Virus record (IMG/VR): IMGVR_UViG_3300009529_000001
Coordinates: 32,001-96,000 of that record
Reading direction: 5' to 3' (one strand)
Origin: a virus
Length of the DNA stretch: 64,000 bases
Shown: positions 9,516-60,842 of the stretch, piece by piece
Layout: each line of letters opens with the position of its first letter
Position numbering within the stretch: the first letter of the stretch is position 1
Notes under the pieces: model-generated
What the model was told of the DNA's origin: nothing
What the model saw: only the letters and a program-made list of their open reading frames with translations
Database searches by the model: none
Translations under genes and position numbers: made by a program

Positions 9516-9516
9516 T

Positions 9517-10288: not shown

Positions 10289-10291
10289 ATC

Positions 10292-10462: not shown

Positions 10463-10464
10463 TA

Positions 10465-12909: not shown

Positions 12910-12910
12910 A

Positions 12911-14268: not shown

Positions 14269-14584
14269 AACAAAGACAAGATTAATTAATACTCTTGGAA
14301 GAGTTTATTACGCTTTTTATTTGAAAGGTGGTAGAAAAAATCCTAAAAGAAAAGATATAGAAGAAAATATATATAAAACAAAATATCCTGATTCTTTGAA
14401 ATCATATCAAAAACTTTTTTCTCGATTATTTATACATATTAATGAAAAATTGACACAAAAATCTTATAAGAAAATAATAAAAATATTAAAAGAAGAAGAT
14501 AAATTAACCGAGAAAAAAAGGCGCGGTTATATTAAGTGCTGGCGTTTAATGGAGAAATATTATGGAGGTTATTCAAGCGAATAG
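14261..14584 (+). CDS. hypothetical basic protein
   Basis: Coupled ORF. Confidence 0.55.
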   Translation: MFKTKTRLINTLGRVYYAFYLKGGRKNPKRKDIEENIYKTKYPDSLKSYQKLFSRLFIHINEKLTQKSYKKIIKILKEEDKLTEKKRRGYIKCWRLMEKYYGGYSSE

Positions 14585-16847
14585 TATTAATGATGGATTA
14601 GCAAAAGTTCTTGAAGGTATAGTAGGTAGAGGGAATAAAGTTGATATAAAAGGTAAAGAAACTCTAGAACTTCATCCTTGTTTAATAGAATTTGATAAAC
14701 CTCTTAAACGTACATTGCTTTATCCAGGAAGGGGTAATAATCCTTTCGCTAGTCTTGCTGAAACTTTATGGATTTTAGCAGGACGAAATGACGTTGATTG
14801 GCTAAAATTCTTTTTGCCAAGAGCGCCTGATTGGAGCGATGATGGTGAAGTTTGGAGAGCAGGTTATGGACCTCGATTGAGGCAATGGAAAGCAGAGGGT
14901 GAATGTTCTAGTGAATGGACGTTCATTGATCAAATTAAATATGTCTACGATACACTTAAAAATGATCTAATGAGCAGACAAGCAATAATATCTTTATGGG
15001 ATCCTGGTGAAGAATGTACTGTGGGAAAAACATTAGATTGTCCTTGTTCCAATTGGCTACATTTTATGGTAAGGAGAAAATATAGGCCAGAATTAGCAGA
15101 TATAAAAGACAAACCTGAAACTTGGACTTTCCATCTAGATTGTGAATTTGTGATCAGATCAAATGATGCAATTTGGGGATTCTGTCTTTCCGGTGCTACT
15201 AAAATAAAATTATTGGATGGAACTGTTAAACCTATAAAAGATCTTGTTGATAAACAGTTTTGGGTTTATTCAAAAAATAATGATAAAGAAATAGTACCCG
15301 GAAAAGTTATAAAATGTAAAAAAACAGGAAAGAAAAAAATATTAAAAATAACTTTTAGTGATGGAAGCTTCGTAAGATGTTCTAAAAACCATAAGTTTTT
15401 ATTAAGAGATTGGAAATATAGAAAAGCAAAAAATCTAAAAGTAGGTGATTCAATTGATAGTGTATATTTTAGATTGAATAAAAAAGGTTATGAACAATAT
15501 AACAACGGTGATGGCTGGTTTAATACGCATATAATGGCAAATATTCTGTCGGAAAAGGGAGAATTAGATAGTAATAATAATTTTCATATAACTCACCATA
15601 AAGATTTTGTTAAACGAAATAATAATCCTGAAAATCTTTTATGGCTGGGGAATTATGATCATCATAGTTTTCATGCTGAATTATTGCGTAAAATGTGGCG
15701 GGATCCTAAATATAGAAAATCAAGAAAGAAAGTTATAAAAAAACTTTTAGCTTTTAATAGAAAACAATGGAAAAATCCTGAATATAGAAGAGAAAGACGT
15801 AAAATCTTAAGTGAAAGAATGATCCAATGGTGGGAAGAAGAAAGATTTGATACTGAATTACATAAAGAAGCTGCTAAAAATAATTTAATCAATTACAATA
15901 AATCTTTTAAAGGGCGTAATAAATCTAGAGAGATTGGACAAACATTTGGAACAGATAATTTTAAGAAATATCACAAAACGGGCGGACATTTAAAAACTTT
16001 AGCAAAAATTCATAGAGAAAAATTAAACAATACTCCAAAAATTAAATTTAAACGCACTAGAACTAGAATCCTTAATGTTTTTAATGAATTGAAAAAAAGA
16101 TTCTTAGAATTTAATGAAGAAAATTATTTTAATTATAAACCAATGGGTAATCCTGGATGGAAAAAAGTTTTTGAATATTTTAAAGATTTGGATGAAATAA
16201 ATGAATGCTTAGAAAATTATAATCACATAGTTACTTCTATAAAATCTGACGGTTATGAAGATACTTATGATTTGGAAGTAGAAGATTATCACAATTTTGT
16301 ATTGGAAAATGGTGTTATCGTTCACAATTCTAATATTAATTTTTATGAATGGAGTGTATTACAAGAAATATTAGCAAGTGTATTAGGTATAGAAATTGGG
16401 ACATTTTATTATTATGTATCAAGTATACATGTTTACAAACATCATTGGAAACGTGTTAAAAAATTATTGGAAAATAAAGAAAAATTTGTAGACAATCTTC
16501 CTGAATTTAGATTTTGTAGAGGGCAAATTAATCTTGATAAATATTTGGAAGACTGTGAAATGTTATGTAAATATGTAGAAGAAATAATAATAAATGATAA
16601 GAAAAAACTTAAATATTTTATACCTTTTCATGGGGAGAGAGGATCTACTTTAAACGATATTGCTTGTTTATTGTCAGTTTTTGTAAAAATGAAACAAAAC
16701 GATAATGCTTGGAGAAAAACTTTGCATTGTATTCCATTTTCTGATTTAAAAGTATCTTGTTATTACTATGCAATGAAAAATATTTTTAAATACAAAGATT
16801 ATACAATTCAAGAAGCAATAGAAAAGGTGCAAAAAAATGAGTATTAA
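14562..16847 (+). CDS. thymidylate-synthase-family enzyme, probable dUMP hydroxymethylase, intein-containing
   Basis: YGPRLR, SRQAII, catalytic PC, spliced motif RSNDAIWGF|SNINFYEWS, SIHVY. Confidence 0.8.
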   Translation: MEVIQANSINDGLAKVLEGIVGRGNKVDIKGKETLELHPCLIEFDKPLKRTLLYPGRGNNPFASLAETLWILAGRNDVDWLKFFLPRAPDWSDDGEVWRAGYGPRLRQWKAEGECSSEWTFIDQIKYVYDTLKNDLMSRQAIISLWDPGEECTVGKTLDCPCSNWLHFMVRRKYRPELADIKDKPETWTFHLDCEFVIRSNDAIWGFCLSGATKIKLLDGTVKPIKDLVDKQFWVYSKNNDKEIVPGKVIKCKKTGKKKILKITFSDGSFVRCSKNHKFLLRDWKYRKAKNLKVGDSIDSVYFRLNKKGYEQYNNGDGWFNTHIMANILSEKGELDSNNNFHITHHKDFVKRNNNPENLLWLGNYDHHSFHAELLRKMWRDPKYRKSRKKVIKKLLAFNRKQWKNPEYRRERRKILSERMIQWWEEERFDTELHKEAAKNNLINYNKSFKGRNKSREIGQTFGTDNFKKYHKTGGHLKTLAKIHREKLNNTPKIKFKRTRTRILNVFNELKKRFLEFNEENYFNYKPMGNPGWKKVFEYFKDLDEINECLENYNHIVTSIKSDGYEDTYDLEVEDYHNFVLENGVIVHNSNINFYEWSVLQEILASVLGIEIGTFYYYVSSIHVYKHHWKRVKKLLENKEKFVDNLPEFRFCRGQINLDKYLEDCEMLCKYVEEIIINDKKKLKYFIPFHGERGSTLNDIACLLSVFVKMKQNDNAWRKTLHCIPFSDLKVSCYYYAMKNIFKYKDYTIQEAIEKVQKNEY
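15183..16328 (+). mobile_element. intein (382 aa) with HNH homing endonuclease
   Basis: Starts CLSGATKI, block B CSKNHKF, HHKDFVKRNNNPENL, ends YDLEV..HNF..NGVIVHN followed by Ser. Confidence 0.92.
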
Positions 16848-37516: not shown

Positions 37517-37882
37517 ATGGCTAAGAAAGAGAAGAAACCTCGTTACGAGCACCAGAACCCCGAAGAGGTAAGAATGGGCAAGACAGCCGTCAAGAATCCC
37601 ATTCATGGTGCGCGAGGCTGGAAGCGGGCAACCACGATTGCTCTGGTGGTTGCTTTCGGGAAGCTGAAGAAGCGCGACATCAAGAGGTCGGAACTGGCTA
37701 CGCTCTTGACGATGGCGGGTATCACGTTCAAGTGCGATAGCCCGAAGGAAGGACTGTCCGGCCAGGATCGTGAGGCTAACGCCTACGCGAAGTGGGGACT
37801 TGACAACGCGAAGACCTACAACAACAAGAAGGTCGAAACGGTGATGGGATTCGCGGAAGCTGTGGTAAGCAAGAGTTCCTAA
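37517..37882 (+). CDS. novel basic protein, paralog of 41720-42133; GC-rich, monocistronic
   Basis: Own promoter, SD AAGGAG and terminator; colinear similarity to 41720. Confidence 0.85.
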   Translation: MAKKEKKPRYEHQNPEEVRMGKTAVKNPIHGARGWKRATTIALVVAFGKLKKRDIKRSELATLLTMAGITFKCDSPKEGLSGQDREANAYAKWGLDNAKTYNNKKVETVMGFAEAVVSKSS

Positions 37883-39615: not shown

Positions 39616-39822
39616 ATGCCCCATAATAAAACAGAGGTAGAGGTATTAAGCAATTTTAACAAACTTCTCGAAGAAGTAGAGGCTGAAAGAGCAAGGATAA
39701 AGGTATGGCATAATACGCATGAATTTGAAATAAGTAGAGACGGGAAAGTAGTACAGTTTTTTTCTACGATAGCTGAGTGTAGGGCTTTTCTAAAAGGATA
39801 TCTATTAAAAACGAAGAAGTAA
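39616..39822 (+). CDS. hypothetical protein
   Basis: SD GGAGG. Confidence 0.6.
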   Translation: MPHNKTEVEVLSNFNKLLEEVEAERARIKVWHNTHEFEISRDGKVVQFFSTIAECRAFLKGYLLKTKK

Positions 39823-40340
39823 TTCTATTAAAAACCTCTAATAATTCTATTAAAAACCCTTCGATTTTCTCGGGAAAGTGTTCATTTTGAGTTCATTTTA
39901 GAAAAAAGTGTTCATGGCTTCGAGGGATTTTTGACAAAAAATTTTTCACCACAATTCCTTTCCTTTCATATTAAAAATAAAAAAGAAATGAAAGAACTGA
40001 AATGAATCCAATCATATTAAGAATATTAAAAACAAGAACACATTCATACTGTTTCTTTTACAGAACTGAAATGAAAGGAATCAATTCACATTAAAAACTC
40101 TGACATGATCGTTTGAAAAGAGCTAAGTTTTCATTACAATGGGACGAACCTCATGAATGATTAGAGTTTAGAGTATTTTCACACAGATCAGAGTCAATTC
40201 TCCATAGAAAAGAGTCATTTCTTTTCAATTTAATATGAAAGGATTCTTTTCTTTTCTATTAAAAACAGAATAGATTCAAAAAGTATTAAAATGAGAAATG
40301 AATTTTTTCAAAGTATGAAATTAAAAACATTAAAAACTAC

Positions 40341-40369
40341 TTGCAAAATGAACGAAAATGATATATACT
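40341..40369 (+). promoter_or_regulatory. promoter TTGCAA-N17-TATACT
   Basis: Repeated promoter family; two ATTAAAAAC upstream. Confidence 0.8.
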
Positions 40370-40407
40370 ATATATTAGCAAAGGGGCACTAGAACAAGGA
40401 GGTTGTT

Positions 40408-40680
40408 ATGATTTTAACGGAATTGGGTATGTTCCCAGCATTAAGAAGTATGTTTCAGGAAATATTTCTCGATCAGGGGCTAAACTATCCTACAGCTTTT
40501 AATGTGGCGGAAGGTTTCGATTTACAACACATGGAAAGTTTGGCACAGAAGCTTACTCGAAGCGAACGGGAAAGCTTCGCAACGGGAAATCTCGACGAGG
40601 AGATTTTACCGTTGGTAAAAGCTAAAGGTCTTGAAGAACTACATGAGTTCTGTGACGAATGTTATCACATTATGTTTTAG
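40408..40680 (+). CDS. hypothetical protein
   Basis: SD AAGGAGG after promoter. Confidence 0.75.
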   Translation: MILTELGMFPALRSMFQEIFLDQGLNYPTAFNVAEGFDLQHMESLAQKLTRSERESFATGNLDEEILPLVKAKGLEELHEFCDECYHIMF

Positions 40681-40688
40681 GAGAAACC

Positions 40689-40892
40689 ATGCTAAGAGGA
40701 ATTACAAAGAAGCCGAAGAGAAGGAAGTCTTGGCTAGAATCACATCGTTGCAAGAACAAAACGGTAAAGGGAGGGAAGAAACCCGTTACGGTAATATGCG
40801 AAGATAAAAGATGTTCTTCGTTGTTCATCGTGAAGGAGGAAGGACAGAAATTCTGTTCAACCTGTCAGCGGTTAAGAGGCAAAACTTCATAA
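40689..40892 (+). CDS. small zinc-finger protein
   Basis: CEDKRC...FCSTC; SD AGGAG. Confidence 0.6.
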   Translation: MLRGITKKPKRRKSWLESHRCKNKTVKGGKKPVTVICEDKRCSSLFIVKEEGQKFCSTCQRLRGKTS

Positions 40893-40901
40893 GACCCCTT
40901 G

Positions 40902-40948
40902 GAAAGAAGGAGTTGAGGTCATACGGATGACTTCTTCCTTCTTTTTTT
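40902..40948 (+). terminator. probable intrinsic terminator
   Basis: AAAGAAGGA..GAGGTCAT-ACGG-ATGACTTC.TCCTTCTTT followed by a T run. Confidence 0.65.
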
Positions 40949-41130
40949 AAGAATTTTTGGAAAAGATTCTTTTCTAAAAAAGAAAATTTCCCCAAAACTT
41001 TCTGAAGATGAAGACATTCCTGTGAATCTTTTCATACCAGTTATGGTTTGAATCATGTCATAGTCATAGCCCTGAGATGATTCTAATCCTTCTTTTCTGG
41101 CCTATACCATAACGGTATCGAAAAATTCGG

Positions 41131-41176
41131 TCGAGTATACGTTTTGTATACAAAAGTATTAAAAACGTATACTCGA
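41131..41176. repeat. 15-bp perfect inverted repeat enclosing a second palindrome
   Basis: TCGAGTATACGTTTT ... AAAACGTATACTCGA; inner TTTTGTATACAAAA. Confidence 0.85.
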
Positions 41177-41274
41177 AAACGCCAAAAATTTACTTCGATA
41201 AATGTTTAACAAAAGCATTAAAAACCTAAGCACGAAAAGCATTAAAAAAAACTTTAGTTTTTAATGTTTTTCGC

Positions 41275-41303
41275 TTTACAAACTTTTGCCAATGTGCGAT
41301 AAT
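41275..41303 (+). promoter_or_regulatory. sigma70-type promoter TTTACA-N17-GATAAT with extended -10 TG
   Basis: Upstream of the GA/TC-depleted cassette. Confidence 0.7.
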
Positions 41304-41445
41304 GCGCTTGTAGGTTATTAATGCTTTTTGGCAATTTAACGGTGCGGCGCACAAGGTACACAAACCCCTTGTAGTTTAGCACGGGTAGTAAACCGTTTTT
41401 AATACGTTTGCAATTTCGTAAACGTAAACAACAAGGGGCAATGCA

Positions 41446-41625
41446 ATGGGTAAATTTCGATACCACCGTGCAAAAGGTACGGCCTACGGCTGGCGTGCTG
41501 TATGGCAAATGCTCGCCAGCGACGGCGAGCTGTCGATACATAATGGCTATCGTTGGTGCTGTACAAACAAGCTAGCAAACCGTTGGCTACGCCGCGAAAG
41601 CTTTGTGCAGTTAACAGGTATTTAA
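41446..41625 (+). CDS. 59-aa Trp/Arg-rich hypothetical protein (not in the ORF track)
   Basis: SD AAGGGG 7 nt upstream; MGKFRYHRAKGTAYGWRAVW... Confidence 0.55.
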   Translation: MGKFRYHRAKGTAYGWRAVWQMLASDGELSIHNGYRWCCTNKLANRWLRRESFVQLTGI

Positions 41626-41719
41626 TGCCGTTACCTTATTTTAAACGAAAGGTAGGTGCTCGACAAAGCTAACGTTATTAATGTGTTTCGTTTTTAATAT
41701 TTTTACAAGGGGCTTTACA

Positions 41720-42133
41720 ATGGCAAAAGCAAAAACGACCGAAACGACCGAAACGACCGAAACGAAAACCGAAAAGCCAAAGGCCAAATACGAATTTGTA
41801 CGGGCCGTTGGTATTGCCCTCGGCGGCACAACGCATACTTTGCCCGCAAGCAAGCGCGCGCGTGCCCTGGCGATTGTTGCGGCCTTTGCCGAAAGGCACA
41901 AACGCAAGCCGAACGCCAGCGAGCTAGCGGTTATACTCGGCAACGTTTCGACGATAATGGCGCGCTCGGCTAATTTCGCCTACGACATTAAAAACCGCGA
42001 AAGCGAAATGCGCGCATACGCTCGCTGGTCGTTAAAATCGGGTACGTGCCGCGACGCCGATTTGCAAGCGGCTATGCCGTGGGCGAGGGCGATTGTAAAC
42101 GACGGCAAGCCCGTTACCGAAACGAAAAAGTAA
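41720..42133 (+). CDS. novel basic protein, paralog of 37517-37882; candidate first-expressed host-takeover or anti-defence protein
   Basis: SD AAGGGG; GC-rich; strong terminator follows. Confidence 0.85.
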   Translation: MAKAKTTETTETTETKTEKPKAKYEFVRAVGIALGGTTHTLPASKRARALAIVAAFAERHKRKPNASELAVILGNVSTIMARSANFAYDIKNRESEMRAYARWSLKSGTCRDADLQAAMPWARAIVNDGKPVTETKK

Positions 42134-42157
42134 ATGACCGAAACGAAAACCATTAAC

Positions 42158-42188
42158 AACGGGCGCCTACGGGCGCCCGTTTTTTTTT
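42158..42188 (+). terminator. intrinsic terminator
   Basis: AACGGGCGCC-TACG-GGCGCCCGTT followed by a T run. Confidence 0.92.
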
Positions 42189-42197
42189 GTCGATATT

Positions 42198-42260
42198 AAA
42201 AAACGAAAACGAAAAACGAAAACGAAAACGAAAAACGAAAACGAAAACGAAAAACGAAAA
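42198..42260 (+). repeat. tandem (A4-5CG)n repeat
   Basis: AAAACGAAAACGAAAAACG... about nine units. Confidence 0.9.
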
Positions 42261-42604
42261 GTATTAATAACTTTTTTGCTGCACAAACATTTTAGTAATA
42301 CCATATTAAAAATAATAATATTAAAACCCCCCCCACATAATAAACAAAATTTTTTTTTATTTTGTATGAGTGTTCCCCTTTTAGAAACCTCGAGAATTTT
42401 TGAACTTTAAAACAGTTAATATCAAAAATTTAGAAATCTCGAATGTCCTGGAAACCTCAAAATATTAATATCAAACTATTTCCCGTATATTGAACTCAAT
42501 CTGCCTCATATGACTGGAATCTGGAAATCAGATCGCTCAAAAAATATAGCACAACTACCTACAGGCGAAAAGGTTTTTAATAGAATTGACAAAAGAGTTA
42601 GTTA

Positions 42605-43072
42605 TTATGTAGCGTCTAAAATATTTTCAAGTTGTTTTTTCAGAGTTTGAAGTTCATTGGGGATATCAGAAGATCGAGCGGCGGGATGCGTCAGTTGGAA
42701 AATACAAAGATCGTCTGGAAAATCTAAAGAATCAAAATTGGGGAAACGATCAAAAGTCTGTATAGCTAAATTGCCAAAAAGGATAATAACTTGTGGTTTG
42801 AATTTATTGATAATTTTCTTAATATGTTTATAATCAGCAGGAAAATGTGACGATGATTTGGAACCTATTTTGGGAGAAATGTTTTCCCAATGGATTTGAC
42901 GAAAAAGATCTTCGCCCAAATATTTAATAAGACGTTTGCCTGTGAAGGATTGGGCTAGGAGTCTTTTTTGAAATTCAACCTTATGTCCTCTTTTTTCGGA
43001 ACGATCAAGAGCTTCTTGGACGCGCTCAGGATTATAGACCCACATGTTTTGAAGGAAGGCGAGGATATTCAA
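42605..43072 (-). CDS. uracil-DNA-glycosylase-fold protein
   Basis: TGKRL, KPQVIILFG..A, THPAAR (UDG-superfamily HP motif). Confidence 0.55.
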   Translation of the reverse strand: MNILAFLQNMWVYNPERVQEALDRSEKRGHKVEFQKRLLAQSFTGKRLIKYLGEDLFRQIHWENISPKIGSKSSSHFPADYKHIKKIINKFKPQVIILFGNLAIQTFDRFPNFDSLDFPDDLCIFQLTHPAARSSDIPNELQTLKKQLENILDAT

Positions 43073-46194: not shown

Positions 46195-46893
46195 ATGAAA
46201 TTTTCTATTTTAATGGCAAATTATAATGGTGCAGAATTTATTGAACAAGCGATACAGTCTGTTTTAAATCAAACTTATAAGAATTGGGAATTAATAATTG
46301 TTGACGATGCATCGACAGATGGTTCTATTGATATTATATCCAAAATAAAAGATTCAAGAATTTTATTAATTAAACGTGATACAAATTATGGTTATGGAAG
46401 AAGTTTACAGATTGCGGCTGCAAATGTAACAGGTGATATAATCGGGATATTAGACAGTGATGATGCTTTAAGATTTGATACTTTGAAAATAATGAAAAAA
46501 GCTTATGAAGAGAATCTTGACTGTGGATTAATTTATAGTCAACATTTTGTGTGCGATGAAAATCTTGACATAATATCCAGAGAAGGCAAATGCGGAGAAT
46601 TACCTGAAAATATGACTTATCTGGATGTTTTGCAAGATAAATCTCAAAGAACAAGAGTTAGCCATTTTAAAACATTTAGAAAATCTGTTTACAGAAAGAC
46701 TGAAGGATTTACAGATCATAGAAGGGCAGTTGATAAAGATATTATTTTGAAACTTGAAGAAGTTACCAAATTAGAATTTATAGATCTTTGTTTATATTAT
46801 TATCGGAAACATTCTAAAGGAATTTCTATAAATCCAAGTTCTATTTATAATCAATTTGCAATAGATGATGCTAAAGAAAGACGTGGTCTATGA
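46195..46893 (+). CDS. glycosyltransferase family 2
   Basis: SILMANYN, IIVDDASTDGS, LDSDD, YYYRKH. Confidence 0.92.
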   Translation: MKFSILMANYNGAEFIEQAIQSVLNQTYKNWELIIVDDASTDGSIDIISKIKDSRILLIKRDTNYGYGRSLQIAAANVTGDIIGILDSDDALRFDTLKIMKKAYEENLDCGLIYSQHFVCDENLDIISREGKCGELPENMTYLDVLQDKSQRTRVSHFKTFRKSVYRKTEGFTDHRRAVDKDIILKLEEVTKLEFIDLCLYYYRKHSKGISINPSSIYNQFAIDDAKERRGL

Positions 46894-47828
46894 AAGTTCT
46901 TTTTCCTCCTTTAAAACGCTGGTCTGAAATTAAGACAGGAAAAGGATTTTTTCTGCATAGATTAGTGCAGGCTATAACTGACTTTGATATTAAATTTGTA
47001 GATAATATCAAAGAAGCTGATTTGGTTTTTTCTCTGTTTAAATCTCATCCACAAGGTTATGGTCCTAAAACTATAGCTAGAATAGATGGTATGTATTATG
47101 AACAAGAAAAAGATCCAAGAAATAAATCAATAGGAAAACATCTTGAGAAATGCGATGGGATTATTTATCAAAGTAATTTTTCTAGAAAATGCTCTGAAAG
47201 ATTTTTAAAAAAATACTTTAATTTTAAGAACAGTGTCAAAGAAACTGTTATATTAAATGGATGCGATATATCTTTTTATGATAAAATAAAACCAAGGAAA
47301 AGCAAATTTGGATATAATATATTTTGTTCTTCTCGTTGGAGAAAAGGGAAAAGATTAAAAGAAATAATAGAATTAGTTTTAAGTCTTCCTAATACTGCTT
47401 TATGGATTGCTGGAGAACCTGATTGCAGAATAAAAAATAAACGTATTAAATATTTTGGAAGAATGACACAAGAAAAAATGTCAGAAATTATAAAGATGTG
47501 TGACGCATGTATCCATCTTTGTTCACATGATTCTTGTCCCAATGGAATAGTAGAAGCAATAGGTGCCGGTACTCCTGTTTTGTGTTTGAATAATGGCGGT
47601 ACTCCTGAAATTGTTGGGGAAAATGGTGTAATTTCTAAAGCAGAAATTCCATATAATTTTGAACCTTGCGATGTTCAAAATCTTCCAAAGCCTAATATGG
47701 ATGTATTAAAAAAAGACTTGATAGAATTATTATTAAATGTTCCAATAAAGATAGATAGATATTCTGTAGACATAAAGAAAACTGCAAAACAGTATTATGA
47801 TTTTTTCTTGGAGGTTTTGAATGCCTAA
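46890..47828 (+). CDS. glycosyltransferase family 4 (GT-B)
   Basis: DSCPNGIVEAIGAGTPV...GGTPEIV. Confidence 0.88.
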   Translation: MKVLFPPLKRWSEIKTGKGFFLHRLVQAITDFDIKFVDNIKEADLVFSLFKSHPQGYGPKTIARIDGMYYEQEKDPRNKSIGKHLEKCDGIIYQSNFSRKCSERFLKKYFNFKNSVKETVILNGCDISFYDKIKPRKSKFGYNIFCSSRWRKGKRLKEIIELVLSLPNTALWIAGEPDCRIKNKRIKYFGRMTQEKMSEIIKMCDACIHLCSHDSCPNGIVEAIGAGTPVLCLNNGGTPEIVGENGVISKAEIPYNFEPCDVQNLPKPNMDVLKKDLIELLLNVPIKIDRYSVDIKKTAKQYYDFFLEVLNA

Positions 47829-48396
47829 AGTTTTAATTGATTGTGGAGCACATAATGGTAATATCCTTGAATTGCTTATAGAAAAACTTGGACCTTTTGA
47901 TAGAATATATGCTTTTGAATGCAATCCGGAATTTAAGAAGTATCCTCCCAATGTAACTTATATGCAAGCCGCTGTATGGACTAAAAATGGAGAAATAGAT
48001 TTTTATCTTTCTCCATTAGGAACAAAACCTTCTTCTTTATTAAAAGAAAAAACTACTGGAAAATTAGATATTGAACATCCTATAAAAGTTCGATGTATTG
48101 ACTTTAGTCAATGGTTGAAAAATACAATTACAAAATATGATCATGTAACTATGAAAATGAATATTGAAGGTGCGGAGTATGATGTACTTGAAAAATTGAT
48201 AAAAGATGAAACTATAAAATTGATTGATGCTCTTTATGTTTCTTTCCATAGATCAAAATTGGATTTACCTGATCTTTTAAAACGAGAAAACAGTATTAAG
48301 ACAGCATTGACATTCAGGAATATATCTATTTCGGATTGGGGAGATCTTTTAAGAGGATGGATTCGTGAACGAAAAACTAAAAAAGCAAATTCTTAA
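47821..48396 (+). CDS. FkbM-family methyltransferase
   Basis: IDCGAHNG, AFECNP, KMNIEGAEY. Confidence 0.88.
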   Translation: MPKVLIDCGAHNGNILELLIEKLGPFDRIYAFECNPEFKKYPPNVTYMQAAVWTKNGEIDFYLSPLGTKPSSLLKEKTTGKLDIEHPIKVRCIDFSQWLKNTITKYDHVTMKMNIEGAEYDVLEKLIKDETIKLIDALYVSFHRSKLDLPDLLKRENSIKTALTFRNISISDWGDLLRGWIRERKTKKANS

Positions 48397-48964
48397 GAAT
48401 ACACAGTGGCCCATCGGTAAGCGTGATAAACAATATCAATCCATTGAAGAAATGTCTGGGATTAGAGATATGGAACATAGATATGGAATTATGCGTTTAC
48501 CAAGAGATTTTGGAAATAAAAATGTTTTGGATTTAGGATGTAATTTAGGCACAGTTTGCGTTTATTCTAAAAAAGCTAACGCTAATAGAGTTGTTGGAAT
48601 TGATTATAAAACAAAAACTATTGATACTGCAAAAGATTATGTTTTGGAGTTAGGATTAGCTATAGGTTATTATACATTTGATATTAATCAAGGATTAGAA
48701 GAATTAAAGGATCTTATTGGTGATGAAAAATTTCATTATGTGTTTGCTCTTTCTATATGGAATCATGTTGAACATAAAAAAATATTTGAAATTATCAATT
48801 ATTTTTGTAAAGAATTTTGTTGGTTTGAAGGTCATGCAAAAGATGATTCTGCGACAATGCATAAAATCCTCAAGGATAATCTTGACCACAAAATGGTTGA
48901 ATTTCTTGGATTTACTACGGATAGAAATCAAAGACCAAATTTTTTGATAGAGAAAGTATTTTAA
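48365..48964 (+). CDS. class I SAM-dependent methyltransferase
   Basis: VLDLGCNLG, VVGID. Confidence 0.85.
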   Translation: MNEKLKKQILKNTQWPIGKRDKQYQSIEEMSGIRDMEHRYGIMRLPRDFGNKNVLDLGCNLGTVCVYSKKANANRVVGIDYKTKTIDTAKDYVLELGLAIGYYTFDINQGLEELKDLIGDEKFHYVFALSIWNHVEHKKIFEIINYFCKEFCWFEGHAKDDSATMHKILKDNLDHKMVEFLGFTTDRNQRPNFLIEKVF

Positions 48965-49488
48965 TGAAATCTTTTGTTTTAGATGTTATAGATAGAAAAA
49001 ATATAAAAATAGATGATATAGTTTATAATGATCTTTGCATAGGGAAATGGTCCGTATACTTACAGTATGGGAAACATGGTTATAAATTTTTTCTTTATCC
49101 TTTAAAGCAAGATGGAAAATGTATTTTTGATATAGATTTACTTGAGACATGTTCTCTAAAAAAGATTGAAGAATTGGCAGAGATTTATGAGATATTATCA
49201 AGTTACAATTTAGCTCCTAAATTGAAAGAAATATTTTCTTTTTCTTTTAGAAACAAAAAAGGATATGGATTAAAAGTCGAACACATTATTCTAAATGAAA
49301 AAGTTTTATCATGGAAAGCAAAGGGTGATTATCTGAAATATTTACGAGACATTTGTATAAAACATAAAATTGTAAGATGGGGAACCATCGAAAATCTTAT
49401 ATGGGAATCGAGCAAATCAGGAAATTACATTTACAGTGAAAACGGATTTAAAGTTGTAGATATTGATCCAAGATGGGAGATAAAATGA
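48964..49488 (+). CDS. kinase-like hypothetical protein
   Basis: LAPK...GNY...KVVDID resembles a degenerate PK-like fold. Confidence 0.4.
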   Translation: MKSFVLDVIDRKNIKIDDIVYNDLCIGKWSVYLQYGKHGYKFFLYPLKQDGKCIFDIDLLETCSLKKIEELAEIYEILSSYNLAPKLKEIFSFSFRNKKGYGLKVEHIILNEKVLSWKAKGDYLKYLRDICIKHKIVRWGTIENLIWESSKSGNYIYSENGFKVVDIDPRWEIK

Positions 49489-49853
49489 CTGATTACGCTA
49501 AAGAGATTAAAACAATTTTTTGTGATATTGATGGTGTAATTTTTAAACATTGTGGAGATTTGACTATTACTTATGATCAAGGCGGAAAACTTTTACTCGG
49601 AGTTACAGACAAATTTAAAGAATGGGCTTTTAAAGGATATAAGATTATTCTTATAACGGGTAGACCTGAAAGTATGCGAGAATTTACTAAAAAACAATTA
49701 GAAAACGCAGGATTATTTTATGATCAACTTATTATGGGATTACCACGTGGGGAACGTGTTGTAATTAATGATCGAAAACCAAATTCACATATTCCAACTA
49801 CAAAAGCAATTGATTTAGAACGTAATAAAGGATTAGAAAATGTTGACATCTAA
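49485..49853 (+). CDS. HAD-superfamily phosphatase
   Basis: FCDIDG, ITGR, YDQLIMG, INDRKP. Confidence 0.85.
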   Translation: MTDYAKEIKTIFCDIDGVIFKHCGDLTITYDQGGKLLLGVTDKFKEWAFKGYKIILITGRPESMREFTKKQLENAGLFYDQLIMGLPRGERVVINDRKPNSHIPTTKAIDLERNKGLENVDI

Positions 49854-50862
49854 ACTAGCATTTGGACCGATGAGTGAAGAAATTATCGAAGCTGTTTACA
49901 GATATTCTTCTAGTAAATACTCCAGTAAAACACTAGTTCAATTGATGCTTATTGCTTCTAGAAATCAAGTTGATTATGATCATGGTTATGTATTTAAAAC
50001 AAAAGAATATGCAACTTTTTTGGATAAAATGTATAAGCGTTATCCTGAAGCTGATATAAAAATTTGTCGAGATCATTGTGGTCTTGGATTTTCTAAAAGA
50101 AAAGATGATGATTTAAAATCTGTTTTTAAAACAATCGAAAATGATATTGAAAATGGCTTTGATCTTATTCACATAGATTTGTGTCATTTAGATGCTAGCC
50201 TTAAAAGAAAACTATGTTGTTCTAAAAAACTTATGACTTTTGCTAAAGATTTAAATAAAAATATTTTGTTTGAAGTTGGAACAGACGAAAATATTGGAAT
50301 TCCTGAAAATAATCCTAAAAAAATTATTGAAAATATTAATTATTTTTTGGATTCTGTTAATCTTGAATTTTATGTAGCGCAAACTGGAAGTCTTATTAAA
50401 GAAATGTACAATGTAGGAACTTTTGTAAAATATCTTGTAAAAGATATATCGGATGTTTTACATAATAAAGGAATAAAACTTAAAGAACATAATGCTGATT
50501 ATTTGTGTAAAGAAAATATTCAGGAAAGAATTGATTCAAATGTAGATGCATTAAATATAGCTCCTCAACTTGGAGTTATTCAAACAAATTGTGTTTTAGC
50601 TCAATGTCAGATATATGGGATTGAATATAGAGATTTTTTATATATAGTGCATCAAGGAAGACGATGGGAAAAATGGACTTCTGAAAAAGAAAATTTATAT
50701 TTTCAAACTATTCTTGCTGGACACTATCACTATAAATCCCCCGAGTATCAGAAAATTATAACAGCGTTAAACAAATATGTCGATATAAAAGAAATAATTA
50801 TCGGACAAGTTACGGATTGCATTAGACATTACGATTCTTGCTTTAGGGGAGTAAACGAATGA
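49840..50862 (+). CDS. GatZ/KbaZ-like (tagatose-6-phosphate epimerase/aldolase-type) TIM-barrel enzyme
   Basis: LIASRNQVD, RDHCG, GFDLIHID, FEVGTDE, KEHNADY, NIAPQLG. Confidence 0.65.
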   Translation: MLTSKLAFGPMSEEIIEAVYRYSSSKYSSKTLVQLMLIASRNQVDYDHGYVFKTKEYATFLDKMYKRYPEADIKICRDHCGLGFSKRKDDDLKSVFKTIENDIENGFDLIHIDLCHLDASLKRKLCCSKKLMTFAKDLNKNILFEVGTDENIGIPENNPKKIIENINYFLDSVNLEFYVAQTGSLIKEMYNVGTFVKYLVKDISDVLHNKGIKLKEHNADYLCKENIQERIDSNVDALNIAPQLGVIQTNCVLAQCQIYGIEYRDFLYIVHQGRRWEKWTSEKENLYFQTILAGHYHYKSPEYQKIITALNKYVDIKEIIIGQVTDCIRHYDSCFRGVNE

Positions 50863-51203
50863 CTGTAATAGATAAACCTTGGGGAACTGAAGAAATTCTA
50901 GAATCTAATGATAAGTATGTAGTTAAACGAATCTACATGGAAATAGGAAAAAAATGTAGTCTTCAATATCACGAAAGAAAGAAAGAAACAATATTTGTCT
51001 TAGTTGGTTCTTTAGAAGTAGATATAGGCGAATCTGTTAATAATCTAAAAACTATTATAGTAAATACAGCAGATGGTTTGACATTAGATCCTGGAGATAT
51101 CCATAGAATGAAAGCTGTAGAAGAAGATTGTATTTATCTGGAGATGTCTACTCCAGAACTTGACGATGTTATAAGATTAGAGGATGATTATGGAAGAGTA
51201 TAA
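50859..51203 (+). CDS. cupin, mannose-6-phosphate isomerase-like
   Basis: KPWG, SLQYHERKKET, IHRM, STPELDDVIRLEDDYGR. Confidence 0.85.
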   Translation: MTVIDKPWGTEEILESNDKYVVKRIYMEIGKKCSLQYHERKKETIFVLVGSLEVDIGESVNNLKTIIVNTADGLTLDPGDIHRMKAVEEDCIYLEMSTPELDDVIRLEDDYGRV

Positions 51204-52764
51204 AGTAGTTATACCTTGCGCTGGAGCAGGTGGACGCTTAGGTGGTCTAACTAAGCATGTCAACAAGGCTCTTATTACTGTTGGCCTTAAACCTATTATT
51301 TCCTATATTATTGAAAAATTTCCTGAAAATATTGAATTTGTAATTGCTCTTGGATATAAAGGGCAATTAGTTAAAGACTTTCTTGAGCTTGCTTATCCTG
51401 AAAGAAAATTTACTTTTGTAGATGTTGATCTTTACGAAGGAGAAGGATCAAGTGTTGGTTATTCTTTATTCTCCTGTAAAAAACATTTACAATGTCCATT
51501 TATTTTTTGTGCTAATGATACGATAGTTACGGAAGAGATTCCTTGTCCAGTAAAAGATTGGATAGGATATTATGCATTAAAAAAAGCTAATGATAATTAT
51601 AGATCAGTTAGTCTTGATTTTAATGTAGTTAATTATGTCCATGAAAAGGGTGAAAATCCGAACGCACGTCCTTATATAGGATTATGCGGTATAAACAGTT
51701 ATAAAAGATTTTGGAGAGCAATGGAAGATAGTGATTTATCAGAAGGGGAATGTATTGGATTAAATGCTATATGTCAACTTCATGCATATCCTTTTATGTG
51801 GCAAGATACGGGTAATCTATCTGATTTAGATTCTGCACGTGCAAGAATTGGACAGCAAAAAGAATTAACTATTCTTCCTAAAGAGGATGAAGCTATTTGG
51901 TTTGTTAATGACAAAGTAATAAAATTCCATATTGATAAAGATTTTATTAAGAATAGAATAGAACGGGCAAAGCATTTAGAAGGATATGTGCCAACGCTTC
52001 TTGACGCAAGAGAAAACATGTATAGTTATAAAAAGGTTGAAGGAAGAATGTTTTCAAAAAGTGATTCTATATTATCGGATTTTAAAATCCTTCTTAAAGT
52101 TTTAGGAGGAGGTTTTTGGAAACTTTGTGGTTTGAATCCCGATGAAGAAAAAGAATTTGATAAAGCTTGTATAAAATTTTATAAAGATAAGACGTATCAA
52201 AGAATTGAACAATATTTTTCAAAATATGATTATAAAGATACTGAAGAAAGAATAAACAGAACATATACGCCGAAATTATTTAGTATGCTTGATACTTTGG
52301 ACTGGGATAATATTACTGATGGTTTTGCTGTCAGATTTCATGGAGATTTACATTTTGAAAATATTGTTATAAATGAAGAAACTGATTTAATGGATTTTTA
52401 TTTTATGGATTGGCGACAAGATTTTGGAGGAATTGTAGGAAGATGTGGGGATATCTATTATGATTTCGCAAAGCTGTTACATGGTATGATAGTTTCTCAT
52501 GAATTGATAGCGGATGGAAAATTTAATATTTGTAAAAAGAATACTATGATTAATTTTGATTTTCTACGGAAACAAAGTCTAATAGATTGTGAGAATTATT
52601 TTATGGAATGGATTTTAACAAAACCTCAATTTGATTATTATAAAGTAGCTGTTTTGACTGCACTTATTTTTCTTAATATTGCTCCGCTTCATGAACATCC
52701 TTATTCTGAATTTTTGTTTTATCTTGGAAAATCGTATCTTTACAAAGTAACAAGTGAAGTATGA
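51184..52764 (+). CDS. nucleotidyltransferase fused to an APH/choline-kinase-like phosphotransferase
   Basis: AGAGGRL...NKAL; WQDTG; FHGDLHFENI, FMDWRQDF, DIYYDFAKL. Confidence 0.85.
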   Translation: MIMEEYKVVIPCAGAGGRLGGLTKHVNKALITVGLKPIISYIIEKFPENIEFVIALGYKGQLVKDFLELAYPERKFTFVDVDLYEGEGSSVGYSLFSCKKHLQCPFIFCANDTIVTEEIPCPVKDWIGYYALKKANDNYRSVSLDFNVVNYVHEKGENPNARPYIGLCGINSYKRFWRAMEDSDLSEGECIGLNAICQLHAYPFMWQDTGNLSDLDSARARIGQQKELTILPKEDEAIWFVNDKVIKFHIDKDFIKNRIERAKHLEGYVPTLLDARENMYSYKKVEGRMFSKSDSILSDFKILLKVLGGGFWKLCGLNPDEEKEFDKACIKFYKDKTYQRIEQYFSKYDYKDTEERINRTYTPKLFSMLDTLDWDNITDGFAVRFHGDLHFENIVINEETDLMDFYFMDWRQDFGGIVGRCGDIYYDFAKLLHGMIVSHELIADGKFNICKKNTMINFDFLRKQSLIDCENYFMEWILTKPQFDYYKVAVLTALIFLNIAPLHEHPYSEFLFYLGKSYLYKVTSEV

Positions 52765-54409: not shown

Positions 54410-54960
54410 GTTTTAATAAAGAAATGATAATAGAAGCCATAGAATTAATTGATCCTAGATATGAACACGTTCTTGAATTTGGAGTATATAAAGGACGATC
54501 TATAAAAATTATTCGAGAAAATCTACCAAATTCTTTTAGAGTATTTGGTTTTGATTCTTTTGAAGGATTGCCAGAAGATTGGAAAGATTCTAAAAACAAT
54601 CTTGTAGGAAAATGTAAAAAGGGATTTTTTTCTACTAATGGTAAAATTCCCGATATAAGAGGAGTAAAGTTTTTTAAAGGATGGTTTAAAGATACAATTT
54701 CTGAATATAAAAAGATCGCTCAGAAAATTGCTTTTATCCATATAGATTCTGATTTGTATAGTTCTGCGAAAGAAATATTATGGGGATTAAATGATTATAT
54801 TGTTAAAGGGACCATTCTTCTTTTTGATGAATGGTATTATGATCATGATCCTAAATATAATGATCATGAAGAAAAAGCATTTTTTGAATGGTCAGAAAAA
54901 TTTAAAAGAAGATATGAAATGTTTGCTGAATACGATGGTAAACAAATTGTGAGGATTTAA
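54406..54960 (+). CDS. TylF/MycF-like sugar O-methyltransferase
   Basis: LEFGVYKG, GFDSFEGLPEDW, GWFKDT, HIDSDLYSS, FDEW. Confidence 0.88.
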   Translation: MSFNKEMIIEAIELIDPRYEHVLEFGVYKGRSIKIIRENLPNSFRVFGFDSFEGLPEDWKDSKNNLVGKCKKGFFSTNGKIPDIRGVKFFKGWFKDTISEYKKIAQKIAFIHIDSDLYSSAKEILWGLNDYIVKGTILLFDEWYYDHDPKYNDHEEKAFFEWSEKFKRRYEMFAEYDGKQIVRI

Positions 54961-54962
54961 AA

Positions 54963-58996: not shown

Positions 58997-58998
58997 TT

Positions 58999-59937
58999 TT
59001 AAACCTTTGTAATAGGATGAAAATGCATTCTGGCTTTACCTACCTGTTTTTTAATCTTCCAATACTTACCCCACTCACAGAGACAAAATTCCATATCTTG
59101 AAGTGTCAATCGTGGACCTTTGAATTTAATGCCAAGATGTTCAAAATGTTCATCTTGTTCATCGGTAAGTTCCGACATTGCATCTGTGTAGGAAATACAT
59201 TCCCTATTAGGATATATTGTTTCTATTCCAAATTCGCATCCTGGTCCTGGATTAGCAAAAGTATCACGAACTTTGTCAGGGAATACTCCAGCATAGACCA
59301 TATCTATACAGACTTCGTATGAAGTAAATCCTCCGAATCCATATTGTTTAAGAAAAAATTTAAAGCATCCTTCCCAATCTAAAATTTTTCTAAACTTTTT
59401 AATTTCTTTCCAGATATACTTCCAATTCTTTTTGAGTTTGGTGACGATAGTAATGAAATTAGCAATACGAGACTGCTTAAGATTTGATTGACAAGTAATG
59501 TGCGCATTTGTAAAGACTCTAAATCCTTTTGATTTGTAGGAATTAAGGCGTTTTTCGTATTTTTCGGGATTAAATTTTTTTCTGAGAGGAATTCCACAGG
59601 CTTCAAAGGTTTCGATATTGTTGTTAATCCTATAAAAAATGCAAGCCCAAACTTTATCTTGAAGTCTCGGATACTTATCGTTTTCAATAATATTTTTAAT
59701 CATCCACTGACTGCCACGATCAAGAATACGATAAACATTAGTAAATTTATATTTTTCTAATATTGGGTCTTTAGTCCACGGAGGAGGTTTTTTCTTTATA
59801 AATCGACGTATATAAATGTTATGACGTTTATGAAGGAATCTGAAAAACATATCAAGATTTTTCTGACAAACTTCAGGATAATCTTCAGGTTTTGGAAGAG
59901 CAGATAAAGATTTAGAAGATTCTCTTTTTAGAACCAT
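58999..59937 (-). CDS. aGPT-Pplase1 / 5-hmdU DNA kinase helical-domain-like (HhH glycosylase-fold) thymidine hypermodification protein
   Basis: PPPWTKDPIL..YKFTNVYR..DR; GFGGFTSYEVCID; GPG; EFCLCEWGKY. Confidence 0.8.
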   Translation of the reverse strand: MVLKRESSKSLSALPKPEDYPEVCQKNLDMFFRFLHKRHNIYIRRFIKKKPPPWTKDPILEKYKFTNVYRILDRGSQWMIKNIIENDKYPRLQDKVWACIFYRINNNIETFEACGIPLRKKFNPEKYEKRLNSYKSKGFRVFTNAHITCQSNLKQSRIANFITIVTKLKKNWKYIWKEIKKFRKILDWEGCFKFFLKQYGFGGFTSYEVCIDMVYAGVFPDKVRDTFANPGPGCEFGIETIYPNRECISYTDAMSELTDEQDEHFEHLGIKFKGPRLTLQDMEFCLCEWGKYWKIKKQVGKARMHFHPITKV

Positions 59938-60755: not shown

Positions 60756-60842
60756 ACTATAATTAATATGACAGAGTTGATCATGAAAAATATTTAATAT
60801 TTTTAAATATTTTTTATTATATGAATTTCTTCCAACATTACG

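Follow-up and report, generated by a model that had tools for sequence, protein, structure and literature searches.

In the genome of an uncultured 110-kb phage, one small gene unit is free of the three-base word TCH (DGA on the opposite strand), whereas elsewhere in the genome the spacing of this word is unusually regular. The unit lies in a window of 64,000 nt (positions 32,001 to 96,000 of IMG/VR record IMGVR_UViG_3300009529_000001), and the features listed below are given as positions in that window. We propose that TCH is the context in which this phage modifies thymine, and that the word-free island is an early unit left unmarked, consisting of a σ70-type promoter, a 59-aa ORF, an HTH protein and a terminator; we put the chance that this is correct at a little under even.

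A gene unit without TCH or DGA

41099..42366, no strand: DGA/TCH-free island with one exception (word counts)
42135..42137, + strand: the sole exception, a TGA, arising from CGA to TGA in a copy of the AAACGACCGAAACGAAAACC repeat (repeat comparison)

The first-pass annotation had claimed that DGA and TCH are almost completely absent between 41099 and 42366, with one TGA at 42135, and word counts agree. Given its base composition, the island should hold ~122 words, and it holds this one (Poisson P ~1e-51); genome-wide, the density is 110 per kb. The flanking words are TCT at 41096 and TGA at 42367, and the TGA at 42135, the only word between them, splits the island into gaps of 1039 nt and 232 nt. 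All but this one of the 51 GA dinucleotides in the island are CGA, and all 22 TC dinucleotides are TCG; the CpG surplus of the island consists wholly of these 50 CGA and 22 TCG, which are 2.6-fold and 1.6-fold above expectation, respectively. AAA (108 vs 46 expected) and TTT (65 vs 17.5 expected) are also abundant, and GC content is 43% vs 33% elsewhere, with a sharp shift in composition at both edges. At the exception, the C of a CpG has become T. A 4-mer analysis of the island detected no hidden rule besides the DGA/TCH ban.

Other long word-free windows, a check that had been proposed with the original claim, do not occur in this genome: word-free runs elsewhere in its 109.6 kb reach 59 nt at most. 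The longest run in 1.28 Mb of unrelated viral loci (random contigs matched by an island 14-mer) is 147 nt, and none of three complete polB-related phages has a word-free island.

Organization of the cassette

41131..41176, no strand: palindrome at the left edge, with 21-nt arms that are 90% complementary and a 4-nt spacer (repeat search)
41275..41303, + strand: σ70-type promoter-like site, TTTACA-17-(TG)GATAAT (consensus match)
41446..41625, + strand: ORF P0001, a Trp- and Arg-rich orphan of 59 aa with SD AAGGGG (ORF and codon tests)
41720..42133, + strand: ORF P0002, 137 aa, with a Lys/Thr/Glu-rich tail and a helical HTH-like core; paralog of P0003 (sequence comparison)
41733..41765, + strand: 9-nt tandem repeat AAACGACCG, 3.7 copies within P0002, encoding TTETTETTE (repeat search)
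42158..42190, + strand: intrinsic-terminator-like hairpin (10 pairs, 8 of them G-C) followed by T9 (hairpin search)
42200..42260, no strand: tandem repeat of the 19-mer AAAACGAAAACGAAAAACG, 3.2 copies (repeat search)
39804..42573, no strand: cluster of ATTAAAAAC words (word count)

The island lies where gene blocks converge, at a natural break of the gene map, and an imperfect inverted repeat crosses its left edge. It had been described as a complete unit bounded by a palindrome and a tandem repeat, with a TTTACA -35 box and AAGGGG Shine-Dalgarno sites in place of the GGA type used elsewhere, and we recovered each of these elements. The -35 box is spaced 17 nt from a TG-extended GATAAT, and the promoter TTTACA-17-TGnGATAAT matches 10 of 12 consensus positions, this being a consensus match only. 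Both cassette ORFs have AAGGGG; among 127 ORF leaders elsewhere, 64 have a GGA-type SD and two the GGGG type. P0001 and P0002 also have an upstream block in common, and we consider it plausible that P0001 is protein-coding. Copies related to AAACGACCG recur at 42116 and 42137.

The promoter is flanked by operator-like words, AAAAG[CT]ATTAAAA / ATTAAAAAC, in both orientations, and the ATTAAAAAC / AAAAGCATTAAAA words may be binding words for P0002. Fifteen of the 25 ATTAAAAAC words in the genome (5.3 expected genome-wide) fall in the cluster at 39804..42573. Given that this cluster covers both the island and the intergenic region of normal composition at 39.8-40.4 kb, the island has regulatory words in common with the native sequence around it.

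Recoding of both ORFs

37517..37882, + strand: P0003, paralog of P0002, 121 aa, with 38 words, of which 5 or more cannot be avoided (sequence comparison)

The absence of the word extends to the choice of codons and of amino acids. P0001 has no word where 15.8±2.5 would be expected at genome codon usage, and P0002 has none where 34.1±3.5 would be expected (minimum 23 in 5000 recodings). Moreover, the amino-acid sequences of P0001 and P0002 demand no unavoidable word, as compared with 5 for P0003, 8 for P0004 and 3 for P0009; all 57 long proteins demand unavoidable words, at 2.2 or more per 100 aa. Acidic residues have been retained in P0002 (10.2% vs 10.7% in P0003), and each of its 17 Glu/Asp codons follows a C-ending codon, as had been noted from the sequence. 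The ban is made by selection, acting at both the codon and the amino-acid level, and not by hypermutation or foreign composition.

The paralog at 37517, 3.6 kb from the island, also proved to be as first described: P0002 and P0003 are 29% identical (E 8e-11) over the whole length of P0002, and in P0003, with a GC content of 54%, the word occurs at the normal rate of 104 per kb. The middle of P0002 resembles proteins built from HTH units of the HNH_repeat type (PF18780) in tandem, and an exhaustive profile search for its family recovered only P0004, P0009 and multi-HTH repeat proteins. We found no meaningful match to P0001, P0002 or P0003 in Pfam, PHROG or NCBIfam; word-index searches with P0002 and P0001 recovered only the proteins themselves. 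The AlphaFold model of P0002 is poor (pLDDT 54), and protein look-alikes in the Atlas were uninformative.

Even spacing of the word elsewhere in the genome

Outside the island, only 124 DGA/TCH gaps exceed 30 nt. Synonymous shuffling gives 223±11 (z -9), codon shuffling 250±12 and an order-3 Markov model 207±12. Among 64 word sets, DGA/TCH ranks first in synonymous and codon shuffles alike. The signal is weak for single words (0.84-0.94) and strongest for the DGA/TCH union (0.56), and it weakens when CGA/TCG are added (0.67) or a single strand is considered (0.78-0.83); TG word sets gave no spacing signal in this genome. The word is also in slight excess, 2.7% above synonymous expectation. The even spacing arises through synonymous codon choice. 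Six-mer palindromes that contain the word occur about as often as expected (median o/e 0.97, n=6) and others are avoided (0.55, n=37), a difference that is not significant (p=0.064); the most avoided are NTCGAN sites.

Three unrelated control phages that lack PF18723 (see below) gave GA/TC spacing values of 0.99 (G001), 1.02 (G002) and 0.81 (G004), so that two of the three do not show the spacing. G004 has strong even spacing of a different word, DCA/TGH, indicating that such signals can have causes other than modification. The first 50 kb of SP-10, a known T-hypermodified phage run as a positive control, contain no island and give no clear spacing signal, which counts against the modification reading. 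In relatives identified by their terminase, the top four of 64 word sets are all GA/TC sets.

Putative thymidine-modification genes

58999..59937, - strand: PF18723 (HMUDK_hel) protein (profile match)
14562..16847, + strand: thymidylate-synthase-family enzyme with an intein (sequence comparison)
42605..43072, - strand: UDG-superfamily protein, converging on the island (PF03167, 25.8 bits vs a cut-off of 24.3)

The genome encodes a protein that matches PF18723 over residues 27-297 of 312 aa (E 1.9e-60), which we take to be a marker of 5-hmdU-derived thymidine hypermodification. Homologs of this protein occur in SP-10-like, M6/YuA-like and ViI-like phages, and those in Nachito and Sonora are annotated as aGPT-pyrophosphorylase, not kinase. 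We detected no homolog in the genome of the P-loop kinase of SP-10-like phages and Bacillus phage Nachito, no Pfam or PDB match for the PF18723 neighbour at 59937-60863, and no relative in an IMG/VR search with the PF18723 protein. For the HhH glycosylase-like aGPT-Pplase, the PF18723 protein is the sole candidate in this genome. The modification pathway in this phage may be incomplete or different.

The N-extein of the TS-family enzyme is nearer to the CMP 5-hydroxymethylase MilA (3e-12) than to ThyA (1e-6), and the enzyme is 36% identical to a 387-aa TS-family gene beside the modification genes of Nachito; its best solved relative acts on CMP, and its own substrate may be dUMP or dCMP. There is a second TS-family gene at G000:22412-23530, along with genes for a dUTPase and a radical SAM protein. 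Many sugar-, sulfo- and methyl-transferase genes are also present, which suggests an adduct other than those in known phages. UDGs are common in phages whose genomes carry modified T (PMC13697223). Published thymine hypermodification is context-specific, at the dinucleotides TG/TC (PMC6449724, PMC13458397).

Modification by 7-deazaguanine (DpdA) was considered separately and rejected, the complete genome having no match to PF01702 or PF06508, both of which are matched in control genomes.

Searches for related cassettes

A blastn search of 50,697 phage records with the island, and with the 12 kb surrounding it, recovered no related cassette; nor did protein-based searches of IMG/VR loci (P0002 and the family alignment) or a search of JGI metagenomes with the P0004/P0003 alignment. 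Likewise, there is no island in terminase relatives, which are fragments of up to 17.5 kb, or near polB in polB relatives, which are at most 38% identical, and five polB-relative records contain no P0002 homolog.

A proposed unmarked early unit and its alternatives

We propose the following model. 5-Hydroxymethyluracil would replace thymine during replication, and hypermodification would then occur on DNA at the T of 5'-TCH-3' (DGA on the opposite strand). If the mark protects the DNA, selection would maintain TCH/DGA throughout the genome at intervals of roughly 9 bp, with no interval above 59 bp, and with the three words equivalent on either strand and TCG/CGA not counting. A unit without the word would remain unmodified irrespective of how the chromosome is marked; here, the unmarked unit would extend from ~180 bp upstream of the host-type promoter to ~180 bp beyond the terminator. 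Its likeliest purpose would be to remain readable by unaltered host machinery at the start of infection, or to be invisible to modification-dependent host nucleases, and the island would accordingly be an immediate-early regulatory or counter-defence unit. One of two options raised in the first-pass annotation was that hypermodification by the phage takes place at this word, and it has fared well in part: the marker genes, the slight excess and even spacing achieved through synonymous codons, and the published TG/TC specificity all favour it, with the results for SP-10 and G004 on the other side. Early-looking genes that neighbour the island would not be exempt from the mark, which counts against the model.

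The other option, which we regard as unlikely, is that the island is the first DNA into the cell and has lost the sites at which a TC-directed host enzyme of low specificity would act (an ssDNA deaminase, a nuclease cutting between T and C or a DarT-like ADP-ribosyltransferase, for instance), allowing it to express a counter-measure before the rest is attacked. T7-like and T5 phages exemplify the principle (PMC12455610, PMC10644984), and a complete early-type unit with a host-type promoter, placed at a break between converging gene blocks, would suit it, as would the impression that a single site is enough to matter, as in cleavage. Moreover, the 123-bp "terminal repeat" of the contig lies inside a 440-aa ORF, indicating that it is an assembly overlap in a circular assembly, so the contig ends need not be the true genome ends. 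However, the word is not avoided elsewhere, where it exceeds its synonymous expectation and fills gaps, and a strong terminator in a 1.27-kb island would halt transcription-driven entry. No host enzyme specific for TCH is known to us, and literature searches for a TC-specific anti-phage enzyme or deaminase found none. With the word favoured outside the island, the simple form of this option fits poorly; a hybrid, in which an unmarked leading segment escapes modification-dependent restriction, may apply. It is somewhat less probable again that the word is read by another DNA-level factor, such as a phage nicking enzyme, or a coating or condensing protein requiring a site every few turns, with the island exempt from nicks or coating. 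Even spacing combined with a local ban would suit any dense reader, and the nicking enzymes of Chlorella viruses, with their degenerate 3-nt sites (CCD, RAG), provide a precedent; nonetheless, we identified no nickase or candidate coating protein in the genome, and the thymidine-modification marker genes are a more direct candidate.

We give the remaining explanations very little weight. Recent acquisition of a foreign cassette, with the absence of the word inherited from a compositionally different donor, would account for the higher GC content, the orphan P0001, the tiny P0002 family and the placement between gene blocks, yet 1 of 122 words is not attainable by composition, ATTAAAAAC words are common to the island and the adjacent native intergenic region, and the nearby paralog has equally high GC at normal word density; even if the cassette was acquired, the ban needs a cause. 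We find it hardly credible that a TC-specific cytosine deaminase exhausted the word by turning TCH into TTH and DGA into DAA. The surplus of AAA and TTT and the C-to-T nature of the sole exception fit such a process, but the GC content of the island is above, not below, that of its surroundings, the excess of CGA and TCG points to compensation rather than survival, acidic residues are retained, each with a preceding C-ending codon, and both ORFs are intact, with P0002 aligning to its paralog over its full length. Least probable of all is an assembly chimera or artefact: although this is a metagenome contig with a sharp composition shift at both edges, the island is internal with native sequence on either side, it shares motifs and a paralog with the same genome, its proteins are on record from two contigs, and the imperfect inverted repeat spans its left edge.

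Implications

If TCH is indeed the thymine-modification context of this phage, then a hypermodification context could be read from an uncultured genome by a local ban combined with even spacing elsewhere, making it cheap to mine metagenomes for new modification specificities. It would also mean that hypermodification has a cost, solved by exempting a chosen gene unit, and would point to a process with which the mark is incompatible, be it transcription by the host or evasion of modification-dependent restriction; P0001 and P0002 would be proteins that act first in infection. The island would be a natural 1.27-kb stretch of protein-coding DNA under a strict three-base ban, and informative on the limits of recoding. 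Even without a link to modification, a selected three-base ban together with genome-wide spacing implies some reader of three base pairs.

Comparison with known systems

Short, GA-containing phage marks have a precedent in the DpdA system, which modifies DNA with 7-deazaguanine at GA (and GGC) in CAjan-type phages; unlike those phages, this genome lacks genes for TGT/DpdA and QueC, and the island is rich in GGC. The cassette resembles acr-aca operons in having a strong promoter with operator-like words, a small ORF, an HTH gene and a terminator, but motif bans are no known feature of such operons, and P0001 and P0002 show no similarity to known Acr or Aca families.

The closest parallels are with the thymidine-hypermodifying phages M6, ViI, ΦW-14, SP10 and SH-Ab 15599 (5-HMUDK / aGPT-Pplase). 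Like them, this genome has a PF18723 homolog, TS-family hydroxymethylase-like genes, a dUTPase, a UDG and a radical SAM gene. Hypermodification in those phages is partial, context-specific (TG/TC) and restriction-protective (PMC5889632, PMC8989533, PMC6449724, PMC13458397), and TCH sites, which would account for 16.5% of all T here, would fall inside the partial range known for them. By contrast, the putative context here has three bases (TC not before G), with no TG signal and no P-loop kinase homolog, and neither a modification-free cassette nor even spacing of a context is reported for T-hypermodified phages in the cited literature.

The first-step-transfer region of T5/BF23 and the leading region of T7-like phages are likewise small host-promoter units, with sequences shaped by factors that act on incoming DNA ahead of any phage protein (PMC12455610, PMC10644984). 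The host-RNA-polymerase promoter of such regions has its counterpart here in a consensus match only, and the depleted word is no known restriction site and is enriched and evenly spaced elsewhere. Those regions avoid host restriction sites of 4-8 bp, whereas here a 3-bp word is banned fully and favoured in the rest of the genome. It is possible, though we are doubtful, that a ruler-like TCH context maintained over 108 kb through synonymous codons, together with one immediate-early unit rewritten to the amino-acid level as the sole DNA to enter unmarked, would represent an undescribed layout for a hypermodified genome, a counterpart of first-step transfer that is readable by host RNA polymerase and unseen by modification-dependent nucleases.

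A single predicted transcription unit is almost free of DGA and TCH

The phage genome is the 109,578-bp IMG/VR virus record, of which bases 32001-96000 make up the window. The trinucleotides DGA (AGA, GGA or TGA) and TCH (TCA, TCC or TCT), hereafter "the word", occur at 7,014 sites in the window when all occurrences are counted, or 110 per kb. Between 41096 and 42367 there are two neighbouring word-free gaps of 1039 and 232 nt, split only by a TGA at 42135; the longest other gap in the whole genome is 59 nt. The first-pass annotation had described 41099-42366 (hereafter "the island") as nearly word-free, with this TGA as the sole exception, and had proposed a whole-genome count. The description holds, since the island contains one word against ~122 expected from its own base composition (Poisson P ~1e-51), and the count revealed no similarly long word-free stretch elsewhere. 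The longest gap in 1.28 Mb of unrelated viral loci was 147 nt, and three complete control phage genomes had no comparable island for any trinucleotide pair. By 4-mer analysis, DGA/TCH is the entire constraint, with no further hidden rule; TCGA occurs nine times. The lone TGA lies inside a 95% copy of a repeat (family D3) that has CGA at the same position, so the exception is a C-to-T change at a CpG. Sequence searches of phage records, IMG/VR and JGI metagenomes found no cassette homologous to the island.

The island had also been read as a complete unit of promoter, two genes and terminator between a palindrome and a tandem repeat, with TTTACA as the -35 box. We located all of these elements, and the TTTACA is followed, after a 17-nt spacer, by GATAAT with an associated TG. 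The features of the island and its left boundary are as follows (window positions):

40915-40934, terminator-like site ending the rightward gene array
41131-41176, palindrome with 21-nt arms
41275-41303, σ70-type promoter-like site, TTTACA-17-TGnGATAAT
41446-41625, ORF P0001, 59 aa, orphan
41720-42133, ORF P0002, 137 aa
42158-42190, strong terminator-like hairpin, then T9
42200-42260, 19-mer tandem repeat, then an A/T-rich tail with a C8 run

The island occupies the junction between the end of a long rightward gene array and a 3.5-kb block of small leftward genes that runs up to it. An imperfect inverted repeat (I13) crosses its left edge, with arms at 41029-41047 and 41106-41124; its outer arm is TTTTCATACC, which the inner arm repeats in a word-free spelling, TTTTCGATACC. 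P0001 and P0002 have a common upstream block, CGTTTTTAATA...ACAAGGGGC...ATGG (repeat families D11 and D12). The genome has 25 copies of ATTAAAAAC against 5.3 expected, 15 of them between 39804 and 42573, in the island and in the intergenic region of normal composition at 39.8-40.4 kb. Because this element is common to both, the island is wired into the native DNA around it and is no random foreign segment.

The A/T-rich intergenic region at 39804-40340 carries at least eight direct copies of ATTAAAAAC, often as TCTATTAAAAAC, and the element also lies upstream of TTGCA-type -35 boxes at 25094, 27034, 33867 and 40329; possible roles are those of an UP-type element of early promoters or of an iteron array. 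Genome-wide, the longest intergenic stretches free of the word repeatedly contain GGTATACC-like sequences (e.g., window 21723, 32911 and 25120), possibly representing a class of phage promoter. Runs of C8 and T9 occur at 42326-42358, and two 47-nt direct repeats (70% identical; 42380-42475) sit just beyond the right edge of the island, ahead of the leftward block's 3' end.

Selection down to the amino-acid level

The island was made by selection rather than by mutation or composition. At genome codon usage, P0002 would contain 34.1±3.5 words (minimum 23 in 5,000 trials) and P0001 15.8±2.5; both contain none. The codons that the genome prefers for Arg, Gly and Ser (AGA 59%, GGA 53%, TCT+TCA 53%) do not occur in the two ORFs, which use CGN, GGC/GGT and AGC/TCG, respectively, in their place. 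As the first-pass annotation had noticed, acidic codons always follow a C-ending codon (17 of 17), and both Shine-Dalgarno sites are AAGGGG, a type that precedes only 2 of the 127 other ORFs, compared with 64 preceded by a GGA-containing site. The island has 117 CpGs (observed/expected 2.0), 72 of them within CGA/TCG; without these the ratio is ~0.77, versus 0.82 outside. The CpG excess is thus a by-product, since C or G is added wherever GA or TC is needed. Exhaustion of the word by a deaminase-type process is disfavoured by the higher GC (43%, versus 33% elsewhere), the CGA excess and the retained acidic content (10.2% in P0002 versus 10.7% in P0003, its paralog at 37517-37882).

The amino-acid sequences of P0001 and P0002 are themselves adapted to the ban. 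When the minimum word number for each protein sequence was computed by dynamic programming, both were encodable with zero words, P0003 needed at least 5, and the database relatives P0004 and P0009 needed 8 and 3; all 57 long proteins of the phage need at least 2.2 words per 100 residues. The paralogy of P0002 and P0003, proposed earlier, is borne out (29% identity, E 8e-11), and they are the sole family members in the genome. An exhaustive profile search over 1.8 billion representatives recovered only P0004, P0009 and proteins with 4-8 tandem copies of a 45-residue unit, which is HNH_repeat (PF18780), a helix-turn-helix module in Pfam. From this resemblance, P0002 is most likely a small helix-turn-helix DNA-binding protein with a Lys/Thr/Glu-rich tail; its AlphaFold model is all-helical, with low confidence (pLDDT 54).

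Word spacing outside the island

Outside the island, word-free gaps of >30 nt number 124, compared with 207±12 under an order-3 Markov model, 250±12 under within-gene codon shuffling (z -10) and 223±11 under synonymous-codon-only shuffling (z -9), which preserves every protein and each gene's codon usage; the shuffles rest on simple ORF calls. The word is 2.7% more numerous than the synonymous expectation (z ~9). For exponential gaps, a 3% shift in mean spacing is computed to change the tail by ~10%, so this small excess cannot explain a halving of long gaps. Among 64 word sets of the form "three of four bases plus dinucleotide, with complement", DGA/TCH ranked first under both shuffles, followed by other GA/TC sets. 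The three words act as one set: long-gap ratios were 0.94, 0.84 and 0.90 for single words, 0.68-0.84 for pairs and 0.56 for all three. The signal weakened when CGA/TCG was added (0.67) or one strand was taken alone (0.78, 0.83), and CGA/TCG alone went in the opposite direction (1.16).

In terminase relatives of the phage (12 fragments among loci L013-L027, 122.6 kb pooled, 53-63% TerL identity), four GA/TC sets were the top 4 of 64 (ratios 0.69-0.78, z -5.6 to -7.8), indicating that the spacing is a lineage trait at the level of the GA/TC dinucleotide. The DGA/TCH ratio was 0.99, 1.02 and 0.81 in three control phages without a PF18723 gene (G001, G002 and G004), and the first 50 kb of SP-10 gave no clear spacing signal. 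G004 (IMGVR_UViG_3300009509_000004; loci L212-L217), an unrelated 106.8-kb phage of 54.5% GC, has a stronger effect of its own, with DCA/TGH 21% above synonymous expectation, a longest gap of 47 nt and a long-gap ratio of 0.37. Either G004 has a different word-spacing system or the result is a warning about the spacing method.

We also compared 6-mer palindromes with at least two G/C and at least three expected occurrences. Those containing the word (n=6) had observed/expected values of 0.60-1.16 (median 0.97), and those unable to contain it (n=37) had a median of 0.55, a contrast in the direction expected for a word carrying a protective mark, although not significant (one-sided Mann-Whitney p=0.064). 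Among the most avoided were CTGCAG (0 versus 15.4 expected), ATCGAT (2 versus 20.6), TTCGAA (4 versus 19.5) and CTCGAG (1 versus 5.1); in the last three, GA/TC is present in the exempt CGA/TCG form. Also avoided genome-wide were CAGCTG (4 versus 14.6), GCATGC (0 versus 5.1), and GTAC and CTAG (0.57-0.60).

Candidate modification genes

The phage encodes a tape-measure protein, terminase, portal, family-B-type DNA polymerase, DnaB-like helicase, primase, RecA, RecU and ribonucleotide reductase; a sigma-factor-like match is weak. RecU, together with a purine-rich coding strand, points to a host among the Bacillota. The 123-bp "direct terminal repeat" (bases 1-123 = 109456-109578 of the record) lies within a 440-aa ORF that runs uninterrupted over the junction, so it reflects overlap in the assembly of a circular or permuted map and not a physical terminal repeat. 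Candidate genes for DNA modification include:

58999-59937 (minus strand), 312-aa PF18723 protein (HMUDK_hel, 5-hmdU DNA kinase helical domain; E 1.9e-60)
14562-16847, intein-split TS-family gene; intein of ~375 aa with an HNH-type endonuclease
22412-23530 of the whole record (outside the window), second TS-family paralog

The PF18723 match was confirmed by a genome-wide family search, in which no control genome exceeded the cut-off. Among cultured phages, this protein has homologs in the SP-10-like Bacillus (29-30% identity), YuA/M6-like Pseudomonas and ViI-like groups, for which thymidine hypermodification has been demonstrated (PMC5889632, PMC8989533). Bacillus phage Nachito carries its homolog under the name aGPT-pyrophosphorylase clade 1, flanked by a P-loop kinase, of which we detected no homolog in our phage, and a 387-aa "thymidylate synthase", which matches both TS-family genes (36% identity to the intein-bearing one). 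The N-extein of the latter matches the CMP 5-hydroxymethylase MilA (3e-12) better than any thymidylate synthase (best 1e-6). A dUTPase and a radical SAM protein are also encoded; TGT/DpdA and QueC genes are absent from the genome. A UDG-superfamily gene directly adjoins the island, and UDGs are usual among phages with T-modified genomes (PMC13697223).

Two large clusters of sugar-nucleotide, glycosyl-, sulfo- and methyl-transferase genes (1978-14268 and 46195-60863) may build a DNA adduct or a surface glycan. They include at least two sulfotransferases, GT2/GT9/GT1 glycosyltransferases, FkbM- and TylF-type methyltransferases, RmlC/RmlD-like enzymes, epimerases, and one gene each of UDP-glucose dehydrogenase-like, sugar-1-phosphate nucleotidyltransferase-like and radical SAM type.

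Interpretation and relation to known systems

Hypermodification derived from 5-hmdU affects only part of the thymines, the choice being set by the next base (PMC6449724, PMC13458397). For M6, ViI and ΦW-14, the resistance of restriction sites led to an inferred TG or TC context, and the DNA kinase was put forward as what confers the specificity (PMC6449724); for Acinetobacter phage SH-Ab 15599, the reported context is TG (PMC13458397). In our phage, T in TCH makes up 16.5% of all T. Because the word is banned in one unit and dense elsewhere, in a genome with marker genes of the pathway, the simplest account of the sequence would be modification of the T within TCH, with the island remaining unmarked. 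The ban spans the whole transcription unit and ~180 bp to either side. We infer from this extent that the reason for the unmarked state may lie in a process traversing the unit, not in a single binding site, for instance an unaltered host polymerase transcribing it or modification-dependent nucleases scanning it. The proposal in the first-pass annotation that the island is first-entering DNA purged of host targets is, in its plain form, a poor fit, since the word is favoured elsewhere in the genome. The island may nonetheless occupy a leading-DNA position, because the contig is a circular assembly and the island lies at a natural break in the gene map.

There is a fair chance that this layout is something more general. 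Thymidine hypermodification, its context specificity, and site-poor early DNA, as in T5 and T7-like phages (PMC10644984, PMC12455610), are known components. Two features are not described in the literature that we found: a complete gene cassette, putatively modification-free, whose recoding extends to its protein sequences, and a ruler-like spacing of the context through synonymous choice.
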